Source: Escherichia coli (GTDB lineage Bacteria; Pseudomonadota; Gammaproteobacteria; Enterobacterales; Enterobacteriaceae). Taken from it: DNA of 64,000 nt. Shown piece by piece: positions 702-1,107 of this stretch. The translations under genes were made by a program, and so were the position numbers. Under the pieces are notes generated by a model. That model ran no database searches. It was not told where the DNA came from and saw only the letters and a program-made list of their open reading frames with translations. The stretch lies in NCBI RefSeq assembly GCF_024298765.1, contig NZ_CP101210.1, one strand, 5' to 3'. Positions within the stretch are counted from its first letter, which is position 1. Every line of letters starts with the position of its first letter.

Positions 702-1107
702 TCTTTAAAGAAGAGCTCGTACGAAAGTACGAGCTTTTTTTTCGTATATTGCACACACCGGGGGGATGAGAAGCCCCGACCGGGGTTCGACAACTGGCGA
801 CAGCCAGTTGGACAGACCGTGAACGCAGTGAGCGGGCTGCCCGCAGGGCGAGCGAAGCGAGTCAATCCCCCCCTCACCGCCATCTTTAAAGAAGAGCTCG
901 TACGAAAGTACGGGCTTTTTTTTCGTATATTGCACACACCGGGGGGATGAGAAGCCCCGACCGGGGTTCGACAACTGGCGACAGCCAGTTGGACAGACCG
1001 TGAACGCAGTGAGCGGGCTGCCCGCAGGGCGAGCGAAGCGAGTCAATCCCCCTCACCGCCATCTTTAAAGAAGAGCTCGTACGAAAGTACGGGCTTTTTT
1101 TCGTATA
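702..1107 (+). repeat. Tandem direct repeat, about 2.2 units of 178-181 bp, each unit = terminator hairpin + conserved 40-mer + hairpin-rich 73-bp segment + copy of the tRNA-Ser 3' end (AATCCCCCCTCACCGCCA)
   Basis: Unit starts at 743, 924 and 1102 (CGTATATTGCACACACCGGGGGGATGAG...); copies are near identical with 1-2 homopolymer length differences; the third unit is interrupted by the IS at 1108. Confidence 0.85.
713..742 (+). terminator. Rho-independent terminator after serX (copies recur at about 893-922 and 1072-1100 within the repeat units)
   Basis: Hairpin GAGCTCGTAC-GAAA-GTACGAGCT followed by a run of 8 T. Confidence 0.7.

Follow-up and report, generated by a model that had tools for sequence, protein, structure and literature searches.

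The 64,000-nucleotide stretch of Escherichia coli DNA analyzed here (contig NZ_CP101210.1; hereafter the window) starts inside ghrA, a minus-strand gene, and the tRNA-Ser(GGA) gene serX follows downstream (614-701, plus strand; located with ARAGORN). Upstream of serX is a promoter-like site (551-579, plus strand; TTGACC, a 17-nt spacer and TAAATT), which is the sole sigma-70-like match that a consensus scan gives on the plus strand between 400 and 1200. Directly behind serX lies a short tandem array whose units resemble RtT, an RNA repeat family known from the tyrT locus, and this array is the subject of the present analysis. Tandem Repeats Finder reports a single array at 683-1108 (period 181, 2.4 copies, 98% matches, score 824), in agreement with a preliminary description of the sequence that had placed tandem units of approximately 180 bp after serX. 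A repeat search gives two copies, 683-863 and 864-1044, at 99% identity, together with a three-copy family of 54-nt repeats starting at 688, 869, and 1048 and a three-copy family of 41-nt repeats at 746, 927, and 2418. The first period begins within the tRNA gene: the last 19 nt of serX (683-701) are the sequence that recurs at the end of every unit. The 19-mer AATCCCCCCCTCACCGCCA is found at 683 and 864 (chance expectation 0.01), and a third copy (1045-1061) has two C fewer.

All parts of the array lie on the plus strand. Each unit consists of a 5-nt linker and an intrinsic terminator, then an element of approximately 135 nt ending in AATCCCCCCCTCACCGCCA. In this tail the final 17-19 nt of the upstream tRNA, reaching from the T-loop through CCA, are reproduced exactly. 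The first linker and terminator (702-745) contain the hairpin AGCTCGTAC-GAAA-GTACGAGCT at 714-735 and a T-run that extends to 742; with its A-rich 5' flank and a terminator match on the minus strand, this terminator looks bidirectional. The RtT element of unit 1 (746-882), which is of the Ser type, comprises a G-run (s1, 760-765), the conserved ATGAGAA, s2, GACC, s3 with TTCGA (782-790), an insert with three helices, and the tail. Its 3' half has exactly the layout first described: GGGGTTCGA occupies 782-790, the tail copied from the tRNA 864-882, and the 73 nt of the insert the positions between (791-863). The second linker and terminator (883-926; hairpin 895-916) carry one A-to-G change that turns a pair into a G-U pair. 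Unit 2 (927-1061), also matched by the Rfam model, is the same as unit 1 except that the C-run of its tail (1045-1061) is two bases shorter. The tails, previously given with six C, have seven in unit 1 and five in unit 2, where the last 14 bp are still complete (1048-1061). Between successive tails there are approximately 162 bp of conserved, gene-free RtT sequence. A third linker and terminator (1062-1107) start a terminal partial unit and end at the ATA (1105-1107) duplicated by an insertion sequence (IS) element, to which we return below.

The family to which the units belong is indicated by the Rfam model RF00391 (RtT RNA). Unit 1 matches it over the full model (1-130) with 46.3 bits and an E-value of 3e-07, reaching the gathering score of 45. 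Unit 2 also matches the full model, at 43.8 bits, and falls just under the gathering score because its C-run is 2 nt shorter. In K-12, the three full units at serX score 46.3, 46.3, and 36.1 bits, and the four units of the tyrT locus score 133-137 bits. When the units of serX, serW (the twin tRNA-Ser(GGA) gene), and K-12 tyrT are aligned, they correspond along the whole RtT core, with 66 invariant columns. In RefSeq, the PGAP annotation labels the serX array beside tRNA-Ser as “RtT sRNA” (small RNA) in many E. coli genomes. The array belongs to an already described and routinely annotated family and is not new. The labelling is uneven, with 0 to 3 “RtT sRNA” features on arrays of equal length, because the 45-bit threshold falls within the 36-46 bits that Ser-type units reach. 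The curated K-12 record has nothing annotated after serX; only rttR and tpr are annotated, at tyrT.

The tyrT repeats are said to have been described by Egan and Landy in 1978 and by Rossi et al. in 1981. Transcription termination within them is reportedly Rho-dependent, which fits the lack of hairpin terminators in Tyr-type units. According to the passage of PMC3318445 that cites Bosl and Kersten (1991), rttR is encoded by one repeat unit of the tyrT operon. Like the RtT/rttR repeats of tyrT-tyrV (178 bp), the serX units are tandem units of approximately 170-180 bp directly downstream of a tRNA and in the same orientation, and every unit ends in the last 19 or so nucleotides of its host tRNA, CCA included. 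Both share the core GGATGAGAA-N4-CGAC-N4-GTTCGA ... GGGCGAG ... GAGT-AAT and the same helix layout, and the serX array matches the covariance model at the gathering score. In contrast to the tyrT units, however, the serX units have tRNA-Ser(GGA) as host, with four segments switched to suit its T-stem; the Ser-type insert is approximately 7 nt longer and has a different first hairpin; and every Ser-type unit contains an intrinsic terminator, which the tyrT units do not. Ser-type units also score only about 45 bits against the 133-137 of the tyrT units, and their annotation is accordingly patchy.

We are interested in whether the units are conserved as a folded RNA. A consensus structure was predicted with RNAalifold from 59 distinct Ser-type units, and pairs were counted in these units and in two controls, shuffles and slid partners. 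Among the 27 consensus pairs predicted, 11 have changes on both sides. The predicted layout consists of a closing stem (s1:s4), a hairpin (s2:s3) lengthened by GAA:UUC, and three helices within the 73-nt insert. In the closing stem the 5' G-run pairs with the copied 3' strand of the T-stem and acceptor, and ...CACCGCCA is left single-stranded. Cells of the alignment pair in 97.8% of cases, compared with 92.0% after shuffling and at most 57% when partners are slid, and double-change cells number 74 versus 14 in the shuffles. The helices of the insert are held by compensatory changes across genera. The best-supported helix is the hairpin CAACTGGC/GCCAGTTG, in which all four pairs are changed on both sides; this is the first of two hairpins that had been proposed in the insert. 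The second, GCGGG-CTG-CCCGC, fared differently: it is present in the single-sequence minimum free energy fold, but only 67% of its cells pair, equal to the shuffles, and its bases belong instead to a supported longer-range helix. One G-U pair is invariant in 59 of 59 units, which indicates that the tRNA-sense strand is the folded one. On the plus strand unit 1 folds at -59.4 kcal/mol with z = -3.1, and on the minus strand z is -1.8. When Ser and Tyr units are taken together, the segments s1 to s4 admit two exclusive arrangements that fit equally, s1:s4 with s2:s3 (98.6% paired) and s1:s2 with s3:s4 (98.2%). A change in Enterobacter ludwigii, described below, is alone in specifically favouring s1:s4. 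The predicted closed multi-helix fold is conserved on the sense strand across Enterobacterales. The preliminary description had listed a tRNA-like structured RNA as one of its possibilities, and given the Rfam match, the RefSeq label, and the covariation-supported fold, this was essentially right.

How widely are such units distributed, and next to which tRNA genes? Of the 5,426 E. coli genomes searched, 5,425 have a match to the query, which is covered to at least 80% in 2,862. At serW the number of units ranges from 0 in one O157:H7 strain to 6 in strain JNE23-011. We also scanned one genome for each species with a core pattern that is independent of the T-stem, GATGAGAA-N4-CGAC-N4-GTTCGA, which gave at least 120 loci, nearly all of them in Enterobacterales. 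Outside this order there are about a dozen isolated matches, all without a tRNA and without a tail, about as many as an 18-base pattern would produce by chance. Among the matches listed, units with an upstream tRNA follow tRNA-Ser(GGA) or tRNA-Tyr(GUA) only, and no other host tRNA is found. The locus architectures among these matches (R denotes an RtT unit) are Ser-R(1-6), Tyr-Tyr-R(1-5), Tyr-R-Tyr-R, and one case of Ser-R-R-Ser-R. The window itself contains a second serine tRNA gene for contrast with serX: serT, encoding tRNA-Ser(UGA) (56157-56244, plus strand), has no RtT match and no such array downstream in an Rfam scan of the window.

The division into two host tRNAs is mirrored in the sequence of the units. 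Four segments that have GG/CC in the Ser type have AA/TT in the Tyr type, in each case fitting the T-stem of the upstream tRNA: s1 is GGGGAAGG in the Tyr type and GGGGGG in the Ser type, s2 is CTTC and CCCC, s3 is AAGG and GGGG, and s4 is CCTTCCCC and CCCCCCC, respectively. The same correspondence is seen at a finer scale. In species whose tRNA-Tyr ends in ...CCCCCGCCACCA, the tails of the units carry the same ending. In E. ludwigii, a C-to-T change is common to the tRNA and the tail (CCTTCTCC), and a corresponding G-to-A change in s1 (AGAGAAGG) is present in all five units. The tails and their pairing partners change along with the host tRNA, both between the two types and within lineages.

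Several loci depart from the usual arrangement. In Enterobacter and relatives (four loci in our set, L030, L088, L120, and L121), some units have a Ser-type core and a tail that reads ...AATCCCCCCCGG(A/T/C)GCCA, not ...CCCCCCCTCACCGCCA; at L088 each of these odd-tailed units comes after a unit with a normal tail. In Kosakonia cowanii (L010, approximately 9450-10610) the order is tRNA-Ser, RtT, RtT, tRNA-Ser, RtT, the Ser-type counterpart of tyrT-RtT-tyrV, which suggests that recombination between a unit tail and a tRNA can duplicate the tRNA gene. At serW (L003, 3772-3799; L006, 4140-4230) the array, or the gap in its place in O157, is followed by CRISPR direct repeats (Rfam CRISPR-DR4; CTGCCTGTACGGCAGTGAAC) and then by clpA.

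The number of units at serX also differs among E. coli strains. The two flanks of the array, used as a query, are both common to 717 genomes, and we sampled eight of these. With the same flanks, the eight strains have 0, 0, 1, 2, 2, 2, 3, and 3 whole units. The preliminary description had named an array invariant across strains as counting against its interpretation; with 0 to 3 units among the strains compared, the array is not invariant. GZ2408C has 3.6 copies. In CT282, whose flanks are 99.8% identical to those of the window, the zero-unit allele (L129, 601-690) consists of serX, the terminator, a 41-nt partial unit, and the flank, and it has no IS. Since flanks this similar enclose neither a full unit nor the IS, both the size of the array and the IS insertion are recent differences. 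Unit number is a fast-changing polymorphism. Gain and loss of whole units is the pattern expected of unequal recombination or slippage between repeats, and we propose that unequal homologous recombination among the units, or slippage during replication, adds and removes them. The tails would be kept identical to the tRNA by the same process, because the series of repeat boundaries starts with the 3' end of the tRNA itself.

The distal end of the array is interrupted by an IS3-family element of 1310 bp (1108-2417, plus strand) with terminal inverted repeats TGACCCGTCCTGA... and ...TCAGGACTAGTCA and a 3-bp target duplication, ATA, at 1105-1107 and 2418-2420. Its transposase frame is broken into four open reading frames (ORFs). 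The IS, which is foreign to the RtT system, sits in the last partial unit. Beyond it lies the remainder of that unit (2418-2458, 41 nt, plus strand), made up of ATA and the first 38 nt of the RtT element, to GACCGGGGT, which abuts the stop codon of a DUF2726 gene convergent to serX. A truncated copy beyond the IS had been noted before. The piece exists, although it is not a separate copy but the distal end of the array split by the IS; the uninterrupted version is seen in CT282. Strain E7 has the IS at the same site, annotated as “IS3 family transposase, frameshifted.” Near-identical full copies of the IS, with a span of 1312 bp, are among the matches listed, and the IS is covered to at least 80% in approximately 250 of the 5,426 E. 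coli genomes. At the end of the array (window 2458/2459) there is also a breakpoint that separates genome types. The partial unit of the window stops at GACCGGGGT and is followed by ACTTAG, the DUF2726 gene, and phoH, while in K-12 (locus L001, approximately 1460-1470, minus strand) it stops earlier, at CACACACCGGG, and is followed by TGCCCCC, with ycdU, ymdE, and IS3D beyond the array.

Duplicated tRNA 3' ends are also what integrase islands leave behind, and serX is such a site, as the preliminary description pointed out. The islands OI-43 and OI-48 of enterohemorrhagic E. coli (EHEC) are flanked by the 14-bp direct repeat CCCCCTCACCGCCA, which is the last 14 bp of serW and serX (PMC3064760). 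The last 14 nt of serX (688-701) are likewise the direct repeat of OI-48/SRL-type islands. Exact copies of CCCCCTCACCGCCA are present in every unit (in the window at 869-882 and 1048-1061, in addition to the tRNA's own), and O111:H8 strain 08-4455 has a ter/ure/iha island of approximately 72 kb at serX. These observations favor the lead interpretation offered earlier, in which P4-integrase islands, or a small satellite, integrated and excised repeatedly and the tRNA ends are the attachment (att) cores that remained. The structure of the O111:H8 locus, however, is different. On one side of the island the intact tRNA passes directly into island DNA after CCA; on the far side the integrase gene is followed by ...GGCGGT, CCCCCTCACCGCCA, the terminator, two RtT units, and the partial unit. 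The island used the end of the tRNA itself and left the array intact outside. The serW/serX islands (OI-43/OI-48, which are SpLE1/TAI of EHEC, and the SRL pathogenicity island of Shigella) share CCCCCTCACCGCCA with every unit, but their limits are the authentic tRNA end on one side and a single displaced core on the other; the RtT array is external and contains no island sequence. The core, which the preliminary description had suggested looking for at both ends of serX islands, does occur at both boundaries in O111:H8, where the island lies between the tRNA and the first displaced core. Moreover, a chimeric query joining the 3' half of an RtT unit to the OI-48-type left end of this island is covered to at least 80% in 0 of 5,426 genomes, and among the matches listed the best ones span only the tRNA tail and the island part. 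The units do not bracket mobile-element DNA, as att repeats would; what lies between their tails is the conserved structured RtT sequence and not island ends. Homologous arrays follow tyrT/tyrV and serW in many genera, and whole-unit changes in number occur in island-free strains. With the island joined to the tRNA's own end, and with homologous arrays present at tyrT and in many genera, the array does not document past integrations. We rejected this model on the island boundaries in O111:H8 and the chimeric junction search and regard it as highly improbable. A related idea is that the RtT-derived tails serve as secondary or decoy attachment sites (attB) for the serX/serW integrases, given the three exact 14-bp cores in the window. 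Yet no junction at an internal copy was found in the 5,426 genomes for the OI-48-type left end, the sole island type tried, and upstream of the core the units have only the T-loop AAT in common with the tRNA; such a role is very unlikely.

Two other explanations locate the selected function not in the RNA but in a peptide or in the DNA. In the former, each unit would be a small-protein gene encoding a Tpr-like basic peptide from the ATG of GGATGAGAA. This ATG is invariant in all units, K-12 tpr (29 codons) is annotated inside the first tyrT repeat, and the unit in the window has an ORF of 18 codons. In most Tyr-type units, however, the ORF that starts at the conserved ATG is 5 codons long, while its length in Ser-type units varies between 17 and more than 39 codons; in addition, a 1-nt indel shifts the frame between the serX and serW units of E. 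coli. With neither the length of the ORF nor its frame conserved, the conservation of the units is not protein-coding; we rejected this candidate and give it almost no credence. In the DNA-level explanation, the array would shield serX from convergent transcription by means of several bidirectional terminators in series, and the RtT part would be a passenger. It is true that each Ser-type unit opens with a hairpin and a T-run that also score as a minus-strand terminator, and that the neighboring DUF2726 gene is convergent. But Tyr-type units keep the RtT core without such a hairpin, the zero-unit alleles keep one terminator, which is evidently enough, and the compensatory changes and the invariant G-U pair point to selection on the sense-strand fold. 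We judge this explanation decidedly unlikely.

Taken together, we consider it very likely that the array is the serX representative of the RtT repeats, a family with rttR of the tyrT-tyrV operon as its prototype; this includes the proposed RNA and the recombination steps that complete the explanation. Several points nevertheless weigh against it. The Rfam scores are at the threshold, with unit 2 (43.8) and the third K-12 unit (36.1) below 45, and RF00391 is essentially a Tyr-type model. The two mutually exclusive pairings of s1 to s4 are equally good, and the covariation in these segments comprises few independent events, since it stems mostly from one Ser/Tyr split and a few lineage events. 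Because a strong-looking terminator precedes each unit, expression could be very low. Lastly, the species scan required the conserved core, so that divergent relatives beside other tRNAs may be missed.

If the units are expressed, how might the RNA be made? The consensus scan gives no promoter-like site inside the units, so an RNA would have to come from read-through of the serX terminator. Transcription from the serX promoter would read past the terminator at 714-742 into the units, and the tRNA 3'-processing machinery would trim the RNA back to CCA, in the way reported for the tyrT product RttR. Successive terminators would make each further unit rarer in the RNA. There is a precedent for a stable RNA from a tRNA transcript in the 3' external transcribed spacer of the glyW-cysT-leuZ operon, which acts as an sRNA sponge. 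Like this spacer, RtT would be a trailer RNA freed from the tRNA transcript by processing enzymes; unlike it, RtT is tandemly repeated and its CCA tail is identical to the tRNA, and no sRNA partner is known for it.

As to function, the one lead in the literature searched is a proposal that the tyrT RNA takes part in the stringent response, i.e., under amino-acid starvation (bioRxiv 10.1101/2024.07.17.603846). One could speculate that RtT is a host-matched mimic of the acceptor/T-arm end of one tRNA, and that the processed RNA acts as a sensor of, or decoy for, factors recognizing the 3' ends of uncharged tRNAs; we put this forward tentatively, as an unlikely proposal. One of the two folds would close the RNA with a free ...NCCA tail, while the other would rebuild a T-arm-like hairpin along with a split T-arm. 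Candidate factors would be RelA, 3' exonucleases, the CCA-adding enzyme, and tRNA-targeting toxins. If true, mimicry of this kind would account for both the reported stringent-response effect and the restriction to tRNA-Tyr and tRNA-Ser(GGA).

In the literature searched, no paper ties RtT to serX or serW. For serX, PMC12472396 gives only tRNA read counts, and mention of RtT has been dropped from the CoCoNuT preprint in its current version. Nor did we find, in the papers searched, a description of the host-matched Ser type, of the two alternative folds, or of the restriction to two tRNA species.

Other Rfam models also match in the window. Ysr251 has a strong match (192.8 bits) at 3719-3912 on the plus strand, antisense to the 3' part of phoH; it may stem from the coding conservation of phoH and not from a separate RNA gene. 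The nucleoid-associated RNA naRNA4 (CssrE) has three tandem matches with a spacing of 101 bp at 25951-26231 (plus strand). The model of the thermoregulator in the cspA 5' untranslated region has a full-length match (162.8 bits) at 36914-37336 on the minus strand, presumably marking a cold-shock gene paralog.

The duplicates of the tRNA 3' end beside serX should not be taken for island boundaries or att scars. A method that calls islands by repeats of tRNA ends meets three cores at this locus, of which only the tRNA's own is used. For the RtT family, which has been neglected, the analysis points to a Ser(GGA) type at the edge of the detection threshold, to co-evolution of the units with the host tRNA, and to a fold that is conserved while the Tpr-like ORF is not.
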